The notes: generated by a model from the sequence alone, not told the origin. DNA of 34,830 nucleotides from a virus (IMGVR_UViG_3300045988_177761:1-34830); one strand, 5' to 3'. Positions 1,301 through 14,244 are shown, counted from the first letter of the stretch. Translations and numbers: made by a program.

Positions 1301-2059
1301 CTATTTCGTCGGATTGACAACTCTTTCTATTTCCATAATTGCCGCAAAAATTGGGAAAGCTTGTTGCGGCACTACAGCATTCCCTAATGATTTAACTCGG
1401 TCCACTTGATCGGGAATCCCATTATAAGCTCGGCATAATCTGGGTTGATATACTGCGGATCTTCGATTGATTTCCTCAAAGCTTCTTGCGTGAAACTCCC
1501 GCGATAATTCTCCCCCCCAAGGTATCTGGATCTCGCTGCACCTTTCCACATCGATGCCGTAGGAGTTGGCAACAATGAATGTTCTAAGCCTTTGATGTTC
1601 GGCACCGACGGCCAAAGCTGGAAGTACAAACGTTGTTGTTTGGTAATCGAAGTTTTCCAGGTCAGATATCGTACGGTCGAGTTCCATATTGGCGAAGTTA
1701 GCAACATTTTCTCCAACAACCCAATTGGGCCTGAGTTCTTCGACAACTCTAGACATTTCTGGCCAGAGATCACGGTCATCTTCTTTGCCTTTTTGCTCCC
1801 CGGATACACTGTAAGGTTGGCAAGGGAATCCTCCGTGAATAAGCTCAATTGTTCTGTTTCGATCGATAACCCCTTCTTTCTCTAATGCTGCTCTATTGAG
1901 ATCCTTAACATCTTTAAAGATTGGCACATTAGGCCAATGCTTATTTAAAACTTTTCTGGGGAAATCAGCATATTCGCAGAATGCTACAGTTTCAATACCT
2001 GCCCATTCTGCTGCTAAATCAATGCCGCCAATCCCTGAAAAAAGAGATAATGCTCTCAC
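1301..2059 (-). CDS. DNA (cytosine-5)-methyltransferase, short orphan form (252 aa).
   Basis: Motif I LSLFSGIGG, motif IV GFPCQPYS, motif VI ENV, motif VIII QRLRTFIVA and C-terminal GNAV are all present. The target-recognition region is very short. No restriction endonuclease gene is nearby. Confidence 0.85.
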   Translation of the reverse strand: MRALSLFSGIGGIDLAAEWAGIETVAFCEYADFPRKVLNKHWPNVPIFKDVKDLNRAALEKEGVIDRNRTIELIHGGFPCQPYSVSGEQKGKEDDRDLWPEMSRVVEELRPNWVVGENVANFANMELDRTISDLENFDYQTTTFVLPALAVGAEHQRLRTFIVANSYGIDVERCSEIQIPWGGELSREFHARSFEEINRRSAVYQPRLCRAYNGIPDQVDRVKSLGNAVVPQQAFPIFAAIMEIERVVNPTK

Positions 2060-2093
2060 CAGCTCCCCTCCATTCTTTTATATCTTCCGTTTA

Positions 2094-3158
2094 CTAACTC
2101 ACAAATTTTTGATGCGACAACTTGAGTTCTTCATCGCCAATCATGGAATATTTCAACGTTGTGTCGATTGATTCATGTCCCAAGAAGTTCATCACCAGTT
2201 CGATCGGCATTCCATGTCTTCTAGCCATAGTAGCTGCAGTGCGTCTAAATCTATGTGGATGGACGTTTGCTACACCTGCACGATCACCTAATCGTTTGAC
2301 TAATTTTTGTACACCTGCAACAGTCATCTGTCGTCCTTTGTATTTACCATAGAAAATAGGTCCAACCTCATGTGGTACTTTTAGCAAATAGTTTTCCAGT
2401 GCCATCTTAGCTTTGGCATTGAGATAAAGAACCCTTTGCTTATTACCTTTACCTATAACAGTGATGGAATCATTTTCCTTGTTGTAATCTTTAAAACTTA
2501 GTGAAACCAATTCTGATACTCGACAGCCCGTACTTAATAGCAACTCAATTATCAATACTTCCCTTGGCTTCATCGCCGCTGATCGGATTTTTTCGACTTC
2601 AAATTCACTAAACTCCTGTTTCCTACGCTTAGGTACCTTGATGTTTTCTACCCTCGCCCCCGGATCCCTAGTAATATACTCTTCTGTATATAACCATTTG
2701 AAGAAACGGACAATACAGCCCCGTTCTCTAGCAAGAGTGCCTTTACTGACTTTGTCTATCATCTCCCTATTTGCAATAAACAACCTTATGTCATTTGTGC
2801 CCACTTCTTTATATGGTTTTCGCACAGTCCTCATAAAAAGATCGATTGTCTGCATGTAAAGATTTAAGGTACCTTTTGAAAGACCTTGTATTTTCTTTGA
2901 TACAAAAAACTGCTTATAAGCGGCAACATCAGATGTTTCATCATAAATAACCATTTCATTTCGTTGCTCAATAATTGAGTACTTAGAACATTCAACCGTT
3001 AGAATGTTTTTCAATCCCTTCAACTGTGAGCCATCGAACTCTTTTTCAACTTCAAGTAAAATTTTATTGATCAACTTCTCTTGCAATGGCATCACTCCAA
3101 TCTTTATAACGATATGTTCGTCCTTGTTTATCTTCATGACCATAATGCAATAGATCAC
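2094..3158 (-). CDS. Tyrosine site-specific recombinase, XerC/XerD-like. The likely true start is the internal Met near 3092.
   Basis: C-terminal catalytic signatures HPHRFRRTAAT and LGHESIDTTLKY (R..HxxR..Y). Lies in the replication block, not in the lysogeny module. Confidence 0.85.
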   Translation of the reverse strand: MIYCIMVMKINKDEHIVIKIGVMPLQEKLINKILLEVEKEFDGSQLKGLKNILTVECSKYSIIEQRNEMVIYDETSDVAAYKQFFVSKKIQGLSKGTLNLYMQTIDLFMRTVRKPYKEVGTNDIRLFIANREMIDKVSKGTLARERGCIVRFFKWLYTEEYITRDPGARVENIKVPKRRKQEFSEFEVEKIRSAAMKPREVLIIELLLSTGCRVSELVSLSFKDYNKENDSITVIGKGNKQRVLYLNAKAKMALENYLLKVPHEVGPIFYGKYKGRQMTVAGVQKLVKRLGDRAGVANVHPHRFRRTAATMARRHGMPIELVMNFLGHESIDTTLKYSMIGDEELKLSHQKFVS

Positions 3159-8349: not shown

Positions 8350-9060
8350 ATGGCAAAAAGAGTTAGAGGCGAAGATGGTAAAATGTACAAGGTTAAGAAA
8401 CCATTTTACAAAAGGGTTTGGTTTTGGGTACTAGCTATTATCTTTATAGCAATAGTGGGTAACGGTTTATCTGGTGGTAATAATGATTCTGCTGCCGAAA
8501 AATCTTCAAATAGCTCTTCTGTTGCAGACAAATCGACGAGTTCATCAATTAAAGAAGAAAGTTCATCTACAGTTGTTGAAAAAGAGTCTAAGCCAGAAGA
8601 TAATGTTTCTAGCGAATTTAAATCTGCACTGAATCAAGCGAAATCATATTCAGATACAATGCACATGTCCAAACAAGGAATCTATGATCAGCTAGTATCC
8701 GAGTATGGTGGTCAATTTCAACCTGATGCTGCGCAGTATGCAATTGATAATATCCAAGCTGACTGGAATGCTAACGCACTGGCACAAGCTGAATCTTATT
8801 CAGATTCGATGCATCTGTCTAAACAAGGAATTTATGACCAACTAATTTCTGAAAATGGCGGTCAATTTACAGCTGAAGAAGCGCAATACGCTATTGATAA
8901 CATTAAAGCTGATTGGAATGCTAATGCATTGGAACAAGCAAAGAGTTATCAAGAAAGCATGTCAATGTCCCCTGAAGGAATTAGAGATCAATTAGTTTCT
9001 GAATACGGAGGTCAGTTCACACAAGAAGAGGCTGATTACGCTGTTAATAATTTAAATTAA
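8350..9060 (+). CDS. ltp: Ltp-family superinfection-exclusion protein (host surface-exposed, three tandem Ltp repeats) with an N-terminal TM anchor.
   Basis: Three repeats of about 50 aa (K/ESYSDxMHxSKQGIYDQLxSExGGQFxxxxAQYAIDNIxADWNANAL). TM segment VWFWVLAIIFIAIVG with no lipobox Cys. Located between repressor and integrase. Confidence 0.7.
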   Translation: MAKRVRGEDGKMYKVKKPFYKRVWFWVLAIIFIAIVGNGLSGGNNDSAAEKSSNSSSVADKSTSSSIKEESSSTVVEKESKPEDNVSSEFKSALNQAKSYSDTMHMSKQGIYDQLVSEYGGQFQPDAAQYAIDNIQADWNANALAQAESYSDSMHLSKQGIYDQLISENGGQFTAEEAQYAIDNIKADWNANALEQAKSYQESMSMSPEGIRDQLVSEYGGQFTQEEADYAVNNLN

Positions 9061-9167: not shown

Positions 9168-10301
9168 ATGGCTAGTATTCAAAAGAAAGATAATGGTTGG
9201 CAGTATCGTGTTTCTTATAAGGATACTGATGGTAAATACAAAACAAAAACTAAAGGGAAATTCGCTACAAAAAAAGAAGCTCATTTAGCTGCAGCTGCTA
9301 TTGAAAAAAAACTAACTGAAGGGTTTAAAATTTCTGATGCTGATCAAGAATTTCCTGTCTATTTTCGAGAATGGTATGAAGTTTATAGAAAAGGCAAATT
9401 TTCAAAAGCAAATGATGCTGATATAGAAAAGTCTATAAAATTTGCGGAAGCAAATTTCAAAGGAATAAAACTTAAAGATTTGAATAGGAAAATTTATCAG
9501 CAGAAGTTGAATGAATTTGCTAAAACAAGACGATCCTCCACTGTCTCTAAAATTCACATCTATATGAAAGCAGCCATCCAGGATGCACTGCAAGAAGGAA
9601 TTATTTTTAAAGACCCTACTTATAAGGTTTCATCTCGTGGTGGTATTTCAGATAAATCAGATAGAGATAAATTCCTAAGCTACAATGAAACCAAAAAACT
9701 CACAAATTCTTTGATTGATGGCATCAAGCCAACCTACGTATCTAGATATATGATTCTTTTAGGTATTGCTACAGGAATGCGATATGCGGAGATACTTGGA
9801 TTGACTTGGAACTGTATAGATTTTGAAGATAAAACTGTTAGAGTTGAGAAAACATGGGACTATGTATACAAACAAGACTTTTCAAATACAAAGAATTACC
9901 AATCAATGCGCCTTATTACTGTTGACGACTTCACTCTTGACCTTTTAAAACAATTAAAGAAACATCAACGTGAATATTATTTTGGTAGGATACTAAAGAA
10001 TGAGAAAAATCTAGTTTTCCTAAATGACGATATGGAGTTGATATCAAACTCTGCAGTAAACAAAACGTTGAAGAAACATCAAAAGAAAATTGGAATAGAT
10101 CAACCGATAAACTTTCATGGACTTCGACATACACATGCATCAATACTTATCTATCAAGGTGTTAATCTAAAATACGTTTCCAGACGTTTGGGCCATAAAA
10201 AAATTGAAACGACATTAGGTATTTATCAGCATATTCTTGATGAAATGGAACAAAAAGAGTCTCAAATCGTTAGCACGACAATGAGTGAGCTGTTTGCATG
10301 A
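9168..10301 (+). CDS. int: Phage integrase (tyrosine recombinase).
   Basis: HGLRHTHAS...LGHKKIETTLGIYQHI catalytic region. AAGGAG RBS. Last gene of the lysogeny module, next to the attP-like region. Confidence 0.9.
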   Translation: MASIQKKDNGWQYRVSYKDTDGKYKTKTKGKFATKKEAHLAAAAIEKKLTEGFKISDADQEFPVYFREWYEVYRKGKFSKANDADIEKSIKFAEANFKGIKLKDLNRKIYQQKLNEFAKTRRSSTVSKIHIYMKAAIQDALQEGIIFKDPTYKVSSRGGISDKSDRDKFLSYNETKKLTNSLIDGIKPTYVSRYMILLGIATGMRYAEILGLTWNCIDFEDKTVRVEKTWDYVYKQDFSNTKNYQSMRLITVDDFTLDLLKQLKKHQREYYFGRILKNEKNLVFLNDDMELISNSAVNKTLKKHQKKIGIDQPINFHGLRHTHASILIYQGVNLKYVSRRLGHKKIETTLGIYQHILDEMEQKESQIVSTTMSELFA

Positions 10302-10313
10302 ATTCATAATCTC

Positions 10314-10528
10314 GTGCAAAATTGGTGCAAAATCATTCTATTTTCTCTAGTTTTCTCCCACTTTCTTATATTTAAAAAAATGCAAGAACCCTTGATATAT
10401 AAGCATTCCTTATATAGTCAAGGGTTCTTCTGGTTTCTTCATAAGGAGAGTACAAGCCTAAAACCCCCATTACAAACATTGATTTATAAGCTATTTTTCA
10501 AAGTTAATGCAAAATTGATGCAAAATAA
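10314..10528. other. Candidate attP: two pairs of TGCAAAAT arm-type repeats (10314..10335 and 10507..10528) flanking a 20-bp-stem hairpin (10382..10430).
   Basis: Direct reading finds TGCAAAATtggTGCAAAAT and TGCAAAATtgaTGCAAAAT. The hairpin arms are gcaagaacccttgatatataag and cttatatagtcaagggttcttc. Confidence 0.4.
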
Positions 10529-10574
10529 ATTTTCTTAGTGAGAACTGTTTTTTTCAAATTATTATTAGTCACTC

Positions 10575-10603
10575 TTTACATAAAGAACATTTGTTCGTAT
10601 AAT
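10575..10603 (+). promoter_or_regulatory. Consensus-like sigma-A promoter (TTTACA, 17 nt spacer, TATAAT) driving the plus-strand moron cassette.
   Basis: Read directly. AAGGAG RBS and ATG follow at 10610..10626. Confidence 0.6.
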
Positions 10604-10623
10604 TCTTGCAAGGAGTGATTGAT

Positions 10624-10857
10624 ATGCAAATACCACTTGCGCACCAACGAACCTATGCATTAGAAAGATACTATTATGAATTTATCGAAAGAATGGGTCC
10701 TGCACACTTATTGTACGATCAATTTGTTAGAACTATGGAGAACTTCGGCAAACCCTATTTCACCATCCCCAGCAGTTACAGCGGATATCCGGAAGAGTTG
10801 GCGTTTGTATTTAAAAAAGATGGTGACAACTACCTGTTTGATCATGTTAGGACGTAA
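10624..10857 (+). CDS. Hypothetical protein (77 aa), first gene of the plus-strand accessory cassette.
   Basis: ATG at 10624 lies 8 nt after AAGGAG. The ORF-track start at 10606 is a TTG inside the RBS. Confidence 0.5.
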   Translation: MQIPLAHQRTYALERYYYEFIERMGPAHLLYDQFVRTMENFGKPYFTIPSSYSGYPEELAFVFKKDGDNYLFDHVRT

Positions 10858-10916
10858 GACAAGATTCTCCGAAAATACGACCCTAACACAAAGTATAAAC
10901 CCGGCGGCAACTGATA

Positions 10917-11182
10917 TGAACATAATCAGTCAATATGAGCAGGGCTACCTATCTTTTTCTGAGTTTAGAAATGAATTTCCTGACTCCATTTCTGAGTCAC
11001 AGGAAGCTTTATACGGCTCAAAATGTATTGAATTTTATGTCGCTGTCGTATTAGGTAAAACAGATTGTTGCTATTATGTACAACGCTATGGAGGCGATTG
11101 TTATGAAATCGATGAAAGGTGTAGTTTCGAAGATACGTATGTTGAAAATGAGCAAGACCCCTTTGGTCCGTTTCTCTCTTGA
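10917..11182 (+). CDS. Hypothetical Cys-rich protein (88 aa, C-terminal part of ORF 10676..11182).
   Basis: Coding-like sequence with CCYY..C..C. Weak RBS. The N-terminal half of the track ORF overlaps the preceding gene and looks non-coding. Confidence 0.3.
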
Positions 11183-11372
11183 CGGTGTGAACTGTCTTAT
11201 TGCTGCCCACAGTTTGAACTTTTTAGTTGACGTTGATGAGGGAATGCAAATCGTGGTTGCTGGCGAGTATAATGATCGGGAGCAGTTTGTTGTGAAGAAG
11301 TATTCGGTGATTGGAGAAACTAAAATTATGATTGAATTCGAGTCTTTAAATAGAACGTTAAATACGCTATAA
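11103..11372 (+). CDS. Hypothetical protein (89 aa).
   Basis: GGAGG lies 8 nt before the ATG at 11103. Overlaps the previous ORF by about 80 nt in another frame, so one of the two may be spurious. Confidence 0.4.
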   Translation: MKSMKGVVSKIRMLKMSKTPLVRFSLDGVNCLIAAHSLNFLVDVDEGMQIVVAGEYNDREQFVVKKYSVIGETKIMIEFESLNRTLNTL

Positions 11373-11402
11373 TGATTACGATGTAGAAACATAGTTTCAC
11401 TT

Positions 11403-11434
11403 GCGCAGTGTATGTAAATACGCTGTGCTTTTTT
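11403..11434 (+). terminator. Rho-independent terminator of the plus-strand cassette.
   Basis: gcgcagtgta..tacgctgtgc stem followed by TTTTTT. Confidence 0.55.
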
Positions 11435-11439
11435 GTGCA

Positions 11440-11472
11440 AAAAAATAACCCACTCTCGGGGGAGAGTGGGTT
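11440..11472 (-). terminator. Rho-independent terminator (minus orientation) with a perfect 11-bp stem AACCCACTCTC/GAGAGTGGGTT and a GGGG loop.
   Basis: Seen directly. The A7 run on the plus strand becomes a U7 tail on the minus strand. Confidence 0.6.
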
Positions 11473-11798
11473 CACAGAAATAAAAATGAAAGGTTCTAGG
11501 TAAATAAAGTGTAATCGATTTTGATTGATAATTCAATAGCCTATCTTGAATATATATTGACGAAATTTCGTCGCAAGTATCTATTCAATCATAACTATGT
11601 TACAATAGAAAACGAAGAGTGTTAGGCATACGTTAAGATAGTCTTCCCCAATCTTCTTAATCACCTAGCACTCTTCTTAGAGTAAATGCATGTTGTAATA
11701 TAAACATATTAAAAAAGATTATTTTTTGCAAATGATTTGAATTTGAAGTAATGAAAAAAGACTTTAGCTTTCACTAGGGTCTTTGTCTACATAGCACC

Positions 11799-11975
11799 TC
11801 AAAAAGTATGTGACAAATGATTTGTTTTATTATTGAAACTGTTATGCACGTTTTTGTTTTTGTTTGGAATAAAATCTTTAACAGTGGACCTTACATCTAT
11901 GATTCTTGGTGAAAAATTTTTACTCTCTAAAAAAACTTTTGATCTCGTGTTAGTATCTTTAATCAACTTAACCAT
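11799..11975 (-). CDS. Small Lys/Asn-rich hypothetical protein (58 aa), translationally coupled to the proteasome-like gene.
   Basis: AAGGAGG lies 7 nt before the ATG. The ATG overlaps the upstream stop (AATGGTTAA). Below the ORF-track size cutoff. AT-rich region, so it could be spurious. Confidence 0.35.
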   Translation of the reverse strand: MVKLIKDTNTRSKVFLESKNFSPRIIDVRSTVKDFIPNKNKNVHNSFNNKTNHLSHTF

Positions 11976-13164
11976 TTGTAGTCCTCCTTAATTTATATCC
12001 TAAATTATCATCCAAATTAAAGTAATGCTTTCTTTTTACCCATATAGGTCCTTCACTAGGAGTAATAGCAAGTACATCTATTGGACCTCCAACAGTTTCT
12101 ATTGAAGTACTATATTTCCGTTTAAAACTTGTAAGATTTATTAAAGTTTCAGCAATGACTGATGTTTCTTCAACTGGCAATAATGCAATCATGTCCAACA
12201 TCGGGTCTATATACATTTTCCGTTGTATTTCAGACAAGTGATCTATAATTTCAGTATACTTTTCCTTCTCTATACCGTCAAATTTCACAGATTGATCAGC
12301 AAGAAATTGAGATAACTGTGGATCAATACCTTGAACAACAGTATTTACAACATCATCTTGAGCAAAAGGGATTATAGTCGACTTAAGCTCTGAATGTCCT
12401 TGACCAATTCGAGCGTTAACATAGGAGGAATATTTAAATTCATTCATAATAAAAGAATATATTCTAAACGAAATCAAAGATGGAAGAATCTCGTCCTCGC
12501 CGTATCCTGCAATCACAATTCCTGTTGCTGAGAGGAATAAGTTATCTCTGATTAGCGTAAAATAAATCAACTCAAATAAATCAAAACTTATGGCTTCCGA
12601 AACTTCATCTATAGTTGAGATATTATAAAGAACACTTAAAAAAAGAGGGTAATACTTTTCTTTAAATTTAGCTGCATCTAATTCTATAATATATTCTTGC
12701 CCAAATTGGTTTTTGATATTCTTAATTGCTTCTCGTAACAGAGCAATCAAGACTTCTGAATCAATTTTTTGCCCCTGTGATATCAGAAAATTAATTGTCT
12801 CCTCCGTGTTTGAGAAAACCGTATTAACTACCTTACTTATAAAGACTTTAATATATTTATCTTGAATTTCATCGTTCTTTAAAAATTTGTTTGTTCTCAA
12901 ATATTCTACAAAAGAATTTGCATAATCTTCTATTTTACTCTGTTTTGTGTTTCCTATGTACTTCCTATATTCCCCTATTATGATATCCCAAGGAGTTTCC
13001 ATAAATTCACCATTTCCATAAACCATAATACCCACAGAATGATTTGAACTAAGCGTAAATAGTTTCCTTGCAGAATTATATACTTTATTGTCACCTATTG
13101 TTGAAGCTGAGTCAGACGCTAATACTATGCCACTTTTATTTAAAATTGCTATTTCAGCAGTCAT
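11968..13164 (-). CDS. Proteasome beta-subunit/HslV-like N-terminal-nucleophile (Ntn) threonine peptidase, expanded 398-aa form, carried as a phage accessory gene.
   Basis: The N-terminus MTAEIAILNKSGIVLASDSASTIGDNKVYNSARKLF has Thr at position 1 (after fMet removal), Asp at 17 and Lys at 33. This is the canonical catalytic-triad spacing of proteasome beta subunits and HslV. A later ATGIVIAGYGEDE and ARIGQGHSE resemble the vaGxD and GSG segments of the same fold. Own promoter (TTTACA, 17 nt, GATAAT) and GAGGTG RBS. Confidence 0.6.
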   Translation of the reverse strand: MTAEIAILNKSGIVLASDSASTIGDNKVYNSARKLFTLSSNHSVGIMVYGNGEFMETPWDIIIGEYRKYIGNTKQSKIEDYANSFVEYLRTNKFLKNDEIQDKYIKVFISKVVNTVFSNTEETINFLISQGQKIDSEVLIALLREAIKNIKNQFGQEYIIELDAAKFKEKYYPLFLSVLYNISTIDEVSEAISFDLFELIYFTLIRDNLFLSATGIVIAGYGEDEILPSLISFRIYSFIMNEFKYSSYVNARIGQGHSELKSTIIPFAQDDVVNTVVQGIDPQLSQFLADQSVKFDGIEKEKYTEIIDHLSEIQRKMYIDPMLDMIALLPVEETSVIAETLINLTSFKRKYSTSIETVGGPIDVLAITPSEGPIWVKRKHYFNLDDNLGYKLRRTTNG

Positions 13165-13191
13165 TAGGACACCTCGAATACGTTTTTATTA

Positions 13192-13220
13192 ATTATCACC
13201 TTTCAAAACAATTTTGTAAA
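13192..13220 (-). promoter_or_regulatory. Sigma-A promoter for the proteasome-like gene.
   Basis: On the minus strand, TTTACA (rc of 13215..13220), 17 nt spacer, GATAAT (rc of 13192..13197). Confidence 0.5.
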
Positions 13221-13254
13221 TAGGATTTTTATACAACTTATCCTTTTTTAAAAG

Positions 13255-13296
13255 TGACACAAATAAACACTATGTATAAGCCCGCAAAAGCGGGCT
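13255..13296 (-). terminator. Terminator after the endolysin gene (AGCCCGC aaaa GCGGGCT plus a U-rich tail on the minus strand).
   Basis: Perfect 7-bp GC stem seen directly. Confidence 0.5.
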
Positions 13297-13302
13297 ATTA
13301 GT

Positions 13303-14244
13303 TTACCATGGAAGTTTATTGTTGTTCAACGCTCTTTGCAATGCTCGAACCATATCAGAAACTGGACTGATAATACCATCAACCGTAGTCTTTAACGCAC
13401 GTTGCATGGCTTTAATCATCTCTGTTCCACACAGTCCATCGATTGCCCCTTTGTAGAATCCTTTGGCTTTCAATCGTTTTTGCCATGTACGAATAAGATT
13501 CGATCCAATCAATGTTTTATCAAATTTCGCTGCATACAGATTCTTGTTACACGCTTGCCGATATTGATGACTGATCTCGTCATCCGGTGTCATTCCTTCG
13601 TATTCCATCGCCCGATTAGCTGTTCCTGGGCCAAACATCCCATCTTCTGGAATTCTAGTGTAACTTGGCTTAACCGAAGGCTTGCTTGGTTTTCCTGCTG
13701 GTTTAGAACTGTTTGATTCTCCAAACACTGCATCTTTGAATCGTTCTAACTCACTTGGTTTTGCTACCCAAGGCGCTGGACAATTCTTGCCAGTAACATC
13801 ATAATGTCGCCAGATTTTGTCTCGTGTAATATTTGGATACTTAGCGATCAACTCTTTTACTACTTTTACTGTATTTTGGAATGTCTTTTCAGTGATCTTC
13901 CCGTTTCTATCCAAACACATTTCTATTCCGATTGTTGAATAATTGGCATTGCCAATAATACTTCTTAATGGATAATACGGTTGCCCGTTAACATATTTTT
14001 GAATGTCATTTGCATGGTAAGCCACTTCATTCAATGGAATGATACAAATAGCTTCCTCATCATCCACAAACAAATGAGCAGAAGCATAAACACCATTCAG
14101 GTTGTTAAAGTAGCTTTTATGGTTTCGTGCAGTTCCTCCGTTGTTCGCAGTATAATGCATGATCAAGCCTTTGATTCCAGAATTTTTAATTCCTGGACGA
14201 GAAAATTTGTTGATTCGGATATACTCGTATTTAATAAAGCTCAT
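13303..14244 (-). CDS. Endolysin: N-acetylmuramoyl-L-alanine amidase (amidase_2/PGRP type) with a C-terminal peptidoglycan-binding domain.
   Basis: N-terminal LIMHYTAN...AHLFVDDEE...NCP amidase_2 signatures. C-terminal QKRLKAKGFYKGAIDGLCGTEMIKAMQ is PG_binding_1-like. GGAGG RBS. Confidence 0.85.
   Translation of the reverse strand: MSFIKYEYIRINKFSRPGIKNSGIKGLIMHYTANNGGTARNHKSYFNNLNGVYASAHLFVDDEEAICIIPLNEVAYHANDIQKYVNGQPYYPLRSIIGNANYSTIGIEMCLDRNGKITEKTFQNTVKVVKELIAKYPNITRDKIWRHYDVTGKNCPAPWVAKPSELERFKDAVFGESNSSKPAGKPSKPSVKPSYTRIPEDGMFGPGTANRAMEYEGMTPDDEISHQYRQACNKNLYAAKFDKTLIGSNLIRTWQKRLKAKGFYKGAIDGLCGTEMIKAMQRALKTTVDGIISPVSDMVRALQRALNNNKLPW

Follow-up and report, generated by a model that had tools for sequence, protein, structure and literature searches.

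Which function is served by a proteasome-like gene carried as cargo by a temperate phage, and by the short gene coupled to its end, was the question raised by the viral DNA IMGVR_UViG_3300045988_177761:1-34830 (34,830 nucleotides, nt; this whole stretch is called the window below), the minus strand of which carried an open reading frame (ORF) of 398 amino acids (aa) followed by one of 58 aa. An earlier note on this DNA had described the large ORF as a threonine peptidase of the 20S proteasome beta/HslV kind with an intact catalytic triad, located in a cargo site, and had offered it as a possible abortive-infection or exclusion effector; the positions and sequences given there for both ORFs were confirmed by ORF calling and direct reading. 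The large ORF was assigned with high confidence to the proteasome-like N-terminal nucleophile (Ntn) hydrolases of the insertion-bearing PMI (proteasome homologue with multiple insertions) branch, most probably PMI-4, and the two genes were shown to make up a self-contained, horizontally mobile unit, which was an optional post-lysin cargo of a temperate Enterococcus gallinarum phage. The family itself was catalogued in 2021 but is functionally orphan; its near-universal small partner and the mobility of the cassette appear to be new.

The large protein had thousands of relatives, all labelled 'hypothetical', and full-length scans of Pfam and NCBIfam gave sub-threshold hints only (Pfam Proteasome, E 0.09); the PHROG 'HslV family' (phrog_1040) was matched at E 0.31, and phrog_5990, a phage family of unknown function, at E 9e-112. 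No isolated phage was matched by the region in megablast. A full-length profile search against the PDB was dominated by designed helical proteins because of the insertions (see below), which were cut out for later searches. The family profile without insertions had archaeal 20S beta subunits as its top PDB matches (E 7.6e-4 and 1.9e-3), with the family Thr placed on Thr1, G-G-P-I-D-V on G-G-M-I-D-V, and D18 and K34 on residues 17 and 33 of archaeal beta; Pfam Proteasome was matched by 18/24 members at E<=1 (best 2e-4, insertions removed), all under the curated cut-off. The PF00227 score of the large protein itself was 12.9 bits at full length and 19.4 bits without insertions, the gathering cut-off being 22.4 bits: homology to Pfam Proteasome was detected, the gathering score was not reached, and the large protein is a remote homologue beneath the curated cut-off. 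The structure model displayed an alpha-beta-beta-alpha Ntn sandwich with proteasome topology (S1-S11, H1-H4), and its core was composed of strands within residues 4-49, H1 (59-70), H2 (78-91), strands within 214-268, H3 (270-278), H4 (331-352), and strands within 362-377.

The N-terminus of the large ORF was M-T-A-E, and the Thr1/Asp17/Lys33 spacing that should follow from removal of Met was read directly at codons 2, 18, and 34. T2, D18, and K34 were invariant in an alignment of 32 sequences (34-83% identity), and the T/D/K pattern was present in 259/265 full-length relatives, the remaining six being four that begin M-T but fall outside the search pattern and two truncated gene calls; the spacing is therefore not due to chance. 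Also invariant or nearly so in the 32 sequences were T22, G45/G50, G-x-V-I-A-G-Y-G, P-F-A-Q, and E-T-V-G-G-P-I-D-V. G45 was invariant and G50 at least 90% conserved, and 'VGIMVYG' matched Thermoplasma 'TGMTIAG' with a 2-residue offset; judged by this alignment, the equivalent of the oxyanion-hole Gly47 appears to be kept in the G45...G50 strand. As many as 249/265 relatives began with MT, while twelve had N-terminal 'extensions', each with a start-codon-compatible residue directly before the Thr; because these look like mis-called starts, the family has no propeptide, and Thr stands directly after the start in relatives. The segment ARIGQGHSE, earlier taken for the GSG element, sits in an unconserved, indel-rich stretch (alignment columns 290-320), and the equivalent element is P266-F267-A268-Q269 just before H3, with F267 and Q269 invariant and A268 nearly so. 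The profile search without insertions, the Pfam matches, and the invariant T2/D18/K34 together upheld the proteasome-beta-like Ntn fold and intact triad of the earlier note. A catalytically dead scaffold (comparable to 20S alpha or inactive beta subunits) or a phage structural or lysis accessory would be a scarcely credible identity for this protein, since Thr1, Asp17, Lys33, Thr21, and the Gly47 equivalent are (nearly) invariant at 30-40% overall identity and a Thr always directly after the start codon is the signature of a used nucleophile; the phage distribution bearing on the accessory version is given below.

Two large helical insertions in the fold, of the kind anticipated from the sequence, were seen in the structure model; together they amounted to about 200 extra residues, and in many relatives the second exceeded that of the present protein by up to ~40 aa. 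Long insertions after H1/H2 and between H3/H4 are characteristic of PMI-3 and PMI-4 in a catalogue of 22 new proteasome-homologue families (Fuchs, Alva & Lupas 2021, Bioinformatics 37:4694; PMC8665760). Phages carry several families of that catalogue: PPH, introduced as 'the first true viral member'; AAH, with members in many phages; and PMI-4, for which phage occurrence is marked. PMI-4 is the most populous PMI variant there, with 501 nr90 sequences from Proteobacteria, Firmicutes, Actinobacteria, Bacteroidetes, PVC, Cyanobacteria, other bacteria, Euryarchaeota, and phages; the same two sites also carry insertions in PMI-3, a rare variant unreported in Firmicutes or phages (PMC8665760). The family studied here fell into 6,571 clusters when grouped at 50% identity, the best 150 of them being 397-457 aa long, and had members in Firmicutes, Bacteroidetes, Proteobacteria, Nitrospirae, Planctomycetes, Chloroflexi, Cyanobacteria, Actinobacteria, several archaeal lineages, and 243 IMG/VR viral contigs. 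Because its architecture and spread were the same as published, it was filed as PMI-type, likely PMI-4; the latter likewise has a Thr1/Asp17/Lys33 core, no propeptide, both insertions, and a broad spread, its function being unknown. The claim that such a hydrolase had not been described in phages did not survive, given PPH, AAH, and PMI-4 in PMC8665760, phrog_5990, and the BFVD entries, BFVD holding other, compact phage proteasome-like proteins. PPH, AAH, and the PHROG 1040 'peptidase HslV family' are proteasome-fold genes of tailed phages and their hosts, and phage carriage as such is therefore not new, but these proteins are compact (~140-220 aa) and HslV/BPH-like ('group I') without insertions, and the phrog_1040 match was marginal.

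The relatives with known assembly are the archaeal 20S beta subunits of Sulfolobus acidocaldarius (6z46_H) and Thermoplasma acidophilum (1pma_B), which gave the best profile matches and near-best structural matches and shared an N-terminal Thr, an acidic residue at 17, Thr21, Lys33, a G-x-x-x-x-G strand, and a GG-x-IDV strand. Unlike 20S beta, the family had ~200 extra residues, no alpha partner, no propeptide, and F-A-Q in place of GSG(129); and, unlike that housekeeping subunit, it was a mobile accessory gene and probably forms no barrel. In fold and triad the protein matches 20S beta and HslV, which would suit a classical self-compartmentalising barrel served by a host AAA+ unfoldase, and a hypothetical ring might be capped by the insertions if these were turned outward (PMC8665760). 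Against this, the insertions sit at the pore-loop site and the H3/H4 ring-ring interface, where they were argued to prevent ring formation and double-ring stacking (PMC8665760); a closed barrel is improbable because these are the pore-lining and ring-ring contact sites of the 20S particle. HslV itself is a compact ~175-aa subunit without insertions, assembled as a dodecamer and linked to the AAA+ unfoldase HslU, while the present protein is large and no AAA+ gene lay beside it in the window. No recurrent or linked AAA+ gene was found among the 127 nearest neighbours in cellular genomes, and PMC8665760 likewise found no AAA+ partner that co-occurs. The HslV/barrel label was accordingly dropped and an HslV-type barrel with an ATPase partner rejected, such a machine being very unlikely.

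The small ORF was coupled to the large-ORF stop, as described before, with a perfect AAGGAGG ribosome-binding site: its ATG (11973-11975) overlapped the end of the large ORF (TAA 11968-11970) by 8 nt (ATGGTTAA). Conservation of this arrangement was assessed with 176 loci from genomes, metagenomes, and viral contigs, 128 of which had non-identical large proteins and enough flank, and a positional partner was defined as a same-strand ORF of 45-110 aa starting -30 to +60 nt from the large-ORF stop. Such a partner was present in 122/128 loci, compared with 43/128 (34%) in the reverse-complement control and 15% in the shuffled control, and the co-occurrence of the two genes in homologous loci was thus far more general than supposed. 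PMC8665760 reports finding no informative gene context for the homologue families; PMI-4 as published accordingly lacks one, whereas the family here had a coupled ~60-aa ORF in ~95% of loci and behaved as mobile cargo. The small proteins had a median length of 61 aa and were hydrophilic and mostly basic (median pI, or isoelectric point, 9.5) with no hydrophobic segment or signal peptide, complementary in charge to the acidic large proteins (median net charge -14).

One similarity cluster accounted for 62/117 distinct small proteins, and its members had the order basic N-terminus; aromatic-x-S-hydrophobic-x-E-aromatic-x-x-x-hydrophobic-hydrophobic-P; D-P-x-x-x-G; and amphipathic helix, the Bacillaceae variant reading (F/Y)-F-N-L-S-x-E-D-R. 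Partners from Lactobacillales, that of the window included, shared only a local N-V-x-x-(S/T)-(T/F)-(I/V)-K-D-(F/I)-Y. The ratio of nonsynonymous to synonymous substitution rates (dN/dS) between the window and an E. casseliflavus copy was 0.18 for the small ORF and 0.10 for the large gene, and small-ORF values ranged from 0.06 to 0.53 over the eight pairs compared: the small ORFs are real genes under purifying selection. The small coding sequence was independently annotated in a Streptococcus satellite, a Providencia lambdoid phage, and a Porphyromonas phage. A 58-aa ORF 100% identical to that of the window was present in three E. gallinarum chromosomes (L012, L014, and L016; locus ~11190-11366), where it was unannotated in GenBank, and it was called in metagenome records; partner genes of this family are probably widely under-annotated. 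The main-cluster profile retrieved only 43 short hypothetical proteins from a set of 5.8 billion proteins, with no fusions and no Pfam domain. The proper annotation of the locus is a proteasome-like Ntn hydrolase (PMI type) for the large gene, and the small ORF should be called.

Two variations on the pairing were seen. In six Trichococcus loci (L055, L060, L066, L070, L071, and L080) no typical basic partner followed the Ntn gene; an 81-102-aa excisionase/MerR-type helix-turn-helix-like ORF ('YLNIQETADYLEVPVSEI...') started ~45-65 nt after the stop instead. Two copies of the pair per genome occurred in one Salinispira metagenome-assembled genome (L078 and L082, with nearly identical small partners) and in IMG/VR 2846902752_000001 plus 2846902752_000007.

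A strict 1:1 coupling also fits an enzyme and its dedicated substrate, in which case the Thr1 enzyme would cut the small protein at a conserved motif, or transfer it there in the manner of connectase, to give an active peptide or to tag another protein. Connectase (Methanocaldococcus MJ0548 / Methanosarcina) is a monomeric proteasome-homologue ligase that works outside a barrel, with helical additions shaping its specificity, and with it there is a precedent for Thr1 enzymes that have a single specific small or partner protein as their target; a monomeric homologue with a helical lid is thus known as a highly sequence-specific ligase (PMC8665760), and the patterned motif in most partners outside Lactobacillales could be a recognition site. 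The traits that define connectase, namely loss of H1/H2 and a two-helix S3/S4 lid, were absent from the present enzyme, in which H1 and H2 were kept and the strands at 35-37 and 44-49 were joined by a short loop. The motif was moreover not conserved in Lactobacillales partners, that of the window included, although the active-site region of their enzymes was nearly identical, a freer variation than expected of a substrate, and a secreted peptide product is unlikely because the small proteins had no signal peptide or hydrophobic segment. Taken with both sides, a dedicated substrate was considered unlikely, although it is the main rival to the mechanism preferred below.

The mobility of the pair was established from its phage context. 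Over 21 kb the window matched a 34.8-kb metagenome scaffold at 100% identity, and the gene order of this circular temperate phage was early genes, repressor, ImmA, Ltp, integrase, attP (phage attachment site), cargo, lysin, holin, and tail. Identity of the E. gallinarum chromosome L016 to the window was 99.99% as far down as 10442, beyond which host genes (asnB and others) followed, and attP lies just after the integrase because the integrated copy diverges at that point; the moron-type location between lysis cassette and attP is thus supported by both gene order and the divergence of the integrated copy. Homology with cassette-free phages ended at 13270-13278, and an empty site was found in L181, where window position 13278 was joined to 11743 within 12 bp, leaving out a cassette of ~1.5 kb. 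The gene was present in none (0/15) of the IMG/VR phages in which the orthologous lysin was full-length (68-99% identity) and followed by 1.5 kb of sequence or more. Three or more different phage backbones had the identical 398-aa gene after the lysin; one of these was the unrelated myovirus-type phage L011, with a lysin also unrelated, which shared with the window a 98.5%-identical block at 11440-13413. Since the gene was missing from close phage relatives, a structural or lysis component was rejected. In L180 (IMG/VR 3300011522_000028), the lysin of which was 99% identical, the same slot (L180:3233-4382) was occupied by a Panacea/SocA-antitoxin ORF (E 1.5e-8) overlapping a 246-aa ORF without family, a content that looks like a PanA-type toxin-antitoxin pair.

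Beyond these phages, a homologue was found in 13/50,697 phage records and in ten plasmid records; together with the 0/15 count and the empty site, this marked the gene as variable cargo and not a universal component. Seven of the 13 phage records were Streptococcus satellite phages: placement at the 3' end was checked by coordinates in six of them, the pair ending the element in Javan468, while the gene lay within ~200 bp of the 3' end in five other satellites; in Javan421 it was internal, ~3 kb from the end. The pair was located between the Q antiterminator/Dam and holin genes in a Providencia lambdoid phage and among head and neck genes in a Porphyromonas phage. The features of the locus are collected in Table 1.

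Table 1. Coordinates of the cassette and its surroundings, counted from the first nucleotide of the window
Feature	Position	Strand	Basis
Approximate attP region	10302..10442		Integrated copy diverges from circular form; integrase ends at 10301
Convergent terminator-like hairpin of the oppositely oriented ORF 11076-11372	11403..11428	+	Hairpin scan
Intrinsic-terminator-like hairpin with T-run, closing the cassette transcript	11447..11472	-	Hairpin scan
Mobile cassette (promoter-like site, large ORF, small ORF)	11745..13270		Delimited by empty-site relative
58-aa basic hydrophilic partner (net charge +7, pI 10.5)	11799..11975	-	ORF call
398-aa ORF, with high confidence a proteasome-like Ntn hydrolase of PMI type	11968..13164	-	ORF call
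Perfect AAGGAGG ribosome-binding site of small ORF, within the 3' end of the large ORF, 7 nt upstream of ATG	11983..11989	-	Read from sequence
Conserved G-G-P-I-D-V (residues 359-364), counterpart of Thermoplasma 20S beta G-G-M-I-D-V	12073..12090	-	Residue-level alignment and conservation
Insertion 2 (residues ~283-330), helical, between H3 and H4	12175..12318	-	Structure model and alignment
Insertion 1 (residues ~95-205), four helices after H1/H2	12550..12882	-	Helices 98-129, 136-151, 164-182, and 186-204 in structure model; poorly conserved
Codon 34 (aaa), Lys, mature Lys33	13063..13065	-	Invariant in alignments; pattern count
Codon 18 (gac), Asp, mature Asp17	13111..13113	-	Invariant in alignments; pattern count
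Codon 2 (act), Thr, predicted nucleophile Thr1 after loss of Met	13159..13161	-	Aligns with Thr1 of Thermoplasma and Sulfolobus beta subunits
GAGGTG ribosome-binding site of large ORF, 5 nt upstream of ATG	13170..13175	-	Read from sequence
Promoter-like site before large ORF	13192..13220	-	-35 TTTACA at 13215-13220, 17-nt spacer, -10 GATAAT at 13192-13197; consensus match only
G+C-rich hairpin right after the endolysin stop (13303), upstream border of cargo slot	13279..13296		Hairpin scan

The cassette was co-oriented with the late and lysis genes and directly followed them. Five terminator-like hairpins were found in the region against 0.8 expected, well above chance, and they placed the gene, as had been claimed, between an endolysin terminator and a bidirectional terminator pair, the convergent pair (11403-11472) beginning 327 nt beyond the small ORF. 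The promoter of its own that had been attributed to the gene fared less well: a TTTACA-17-GATAAT match is present downstream of the lysin terminator hairpin, but it is weak evidence because such matches were no commoner in the region than in shuffles (12 versus 10.6). Rfam matched no RNA element in 10200-13400. The T-tail of the lysin hairpin was weak on the coding strand, so read-through from the late genes is possible; this, together with the late orientation of the cassette, the Providencia pair inside a late transcript, and the Porphyromonas pair among head and neck genes, would accommodate a lytic-growth effector, that is, a protease used for counter-defence or host takeover, which would destroy a defence or regulatory protein of the host and have the small protein for its adaptor. 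Such an effector seems improbable, more so than a dedicated substrate, because most members were chromosomal without adjoining phage genes in >10 phyla including archaea, others were on satellites and plasmids with so few in phage genomes (13/50,697), and the cassette had its own promoter-like site and terminator.

The reading preferred here is a non-barrel Thr1 hydrolase restrained by its partner within a toxin-antitoxin, abortive-infection, or exclusion module, and as a whole this mechanism is held tentatively, at somewhat under an even chance. Methionine aminopeptidase accepts small residues, Thr among them, at position 2 and would remove Met1 here, no propeptide having to be processed. The roles of base and nucleophile would then fall, as they do in 20S beta subunits, to the free amino group and hydroxyl of Thr1, and the enzyme would be active as soon as made. 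It may be a monomer or small oligomer, with the lid-like helical domain giving substrate specificity much as in connectase. The basic partner, co-translated in stoichiometric amounts, would bind the acidic enzyme and restrain it like an antitoxin or immunity protein. Should the supply of partner cease, for instance when an infecting phage shuts off the host or when the element is lost, the hydrolase would be freed onto cellular or phage targets, and the module would then act as a toxin-antitoxin, abortive-infection, or exclusion system to the benefit of the lysogen and the carrying element.

In its favour, the pair was, like toxin-antitoxin modules, a compact co-translated two-gene operon moving as a unit among mobile elements. 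Classical type II toxin-antitoxin pairs mostly have the antitoxin gene in first place, encoding a DNA-binding product; in RnlA-RnlB and staphopain-staphostatin a small neutralising gene stands after the gene of a large enzyme. The present cassette resembled the latter two in being two-gene, coupled, and mobile (prophages, satellites, and plasmids) with a fast-evolving small partner, and the sister-phage slot with the Panacea antitoxin domain added a further toxin-antitoxin likeness. It differed from them in that it had no sequence or fold relation to either and its small partner carried no recognised antitoxin or inhibitor domain.

Several observations weigh against the restrained-hydrolase mechanism or its components. 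The small gene came second and had no recognisable DNA-binding fold, unlike classical type II antitoxins. The small ORF of the window had no detectable homology to the main small-protein cluster (hidden Markov model E 2.6; hhalign probability ~0), and the identification of the Lactobacillales ORFs as the same partner thus relies on position, size, charge, and selection only. As to the enzyme, the helper residues Ser129 (GSG), Asp166, and Ser169 were replaced by F-A-Q and E-T-V-G-G, and because Ser129 and Ser169 are not conserved its catalytic competence is inferred only; its membership of PMI-4, though most probable, was deduced from the descriptors published for it (representative HDY66466.1). 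As to defence, the PADLOC models had no match for the large protein, the neighbours in cellular genomes were mostly metabolic or housekeeping genes with no clear defence-island signal, and literature searches brought up no functional study of PMI-4 and no proteasome-like defence or toxin-antitoxin system.

The surroundings of the pair in other genomes were heterogeneous. No third conserved gene was identified, the best neighbour family occurring in 10/102 loci and being probably the phage lysins, by its directly upstream position in prophage loci. Among the 127 nearest neighbours no Pfam family occurred more than twice, and PADLOC gave a few restriction-modification, MzaA, and HEC-06 matches, an output unsuited to an enrichment estimate. 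The stress-protein domains KGG and LEA_5 were each found in 2/127 nearest-neighbour ORFs. Lentibacillus, Virgibacillus, and Oceanobacillus (L003, L025, L028, and L031) shared the synteny amidase, Ntn gene plus small ORF, small proteins, MoxR AAA+, DUF58, and transglutaminase, which hints at a chromosomal, vertically kept variant of the pair in halophilic Bacillaceae, possibly with a different role. In oral Streptococcus contigs (L005-L010), the chromosomal pair lay beside rpmG/rpmF, and in some of them it abutted the integrase end of a phage-inducible chromosomal island (PICI)-like satellite (integrase, MerR, and RepB); this locus may be a satellite integration hotspot or the end of a satellite remnant.

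Further accessory genes were present elsewhere in the window. A 236-aa lipoprotein with three Lipoprotein_Ltp repeats (8350-9060, plus strand; Pfam E 1.3e-73; PHROG 'superinfection exclusion' E 9e-100), a known Ltp-type exclusion gene, was located between the ImmA-like metalloprotease and the integrase; since it is present in addition to the cassette, the phage carries at least two separate cargo loci. A second cargo region of opposite orientation lay between the cassette terminators and attP (10442-11400; plus-strand ORFs 10606-10857, 10676-11182, and 11076-11372) and contained a DUF5960 ORF (E 1.3e-8), an overlapping 168-aa ORF without family, and a 98-aa ORF belonging to phrog_15227; its gene calls were 168+77 aa in the circular form versus 89+88+77 aa in 99.99%-identical integrated copies, which suggests a frameshift or mis-called genes. 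Besides the attP-proximal integrase (9168-10301), the early region encoded, at 1301-3158 on the minus strand, a second tyrosine recombinase (354 aa, with Phage_integrase and SAM-like domains) directly upstream of a C5 cytosine DNA methylase.

Proteasome homologues beyond 20S and HslV are a documented, functionally blank part of prokaryotic biology, and the pairing with a partner, the free-standing mobile cassette, and the slot in which it is present or absent make the function of this orphan family directly testable. More broadly, and with less confidence than the mechanism proposed for the window, the PMI enzyme with its coupled ~60-aa partner may constitute an unrecognised pan-prokaryotic Thr1 two-component system, devoted either to a new class of protease-based toxin-antitoxin/abortive-infection immunity, disseminated by phages, satellites, and plasmids, or to connectase-like cleavage or ligation of the partner. 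If the role is one of immunity or addiction, a threonine-protease effector would be added to the known repertoire; if the enzyme is a specific ligase or processing enzyme, it might be useful in a way akin to connectase. Either outcome, if true, would for the first time give one of the 22 orphan proteasome-homologue families a function.

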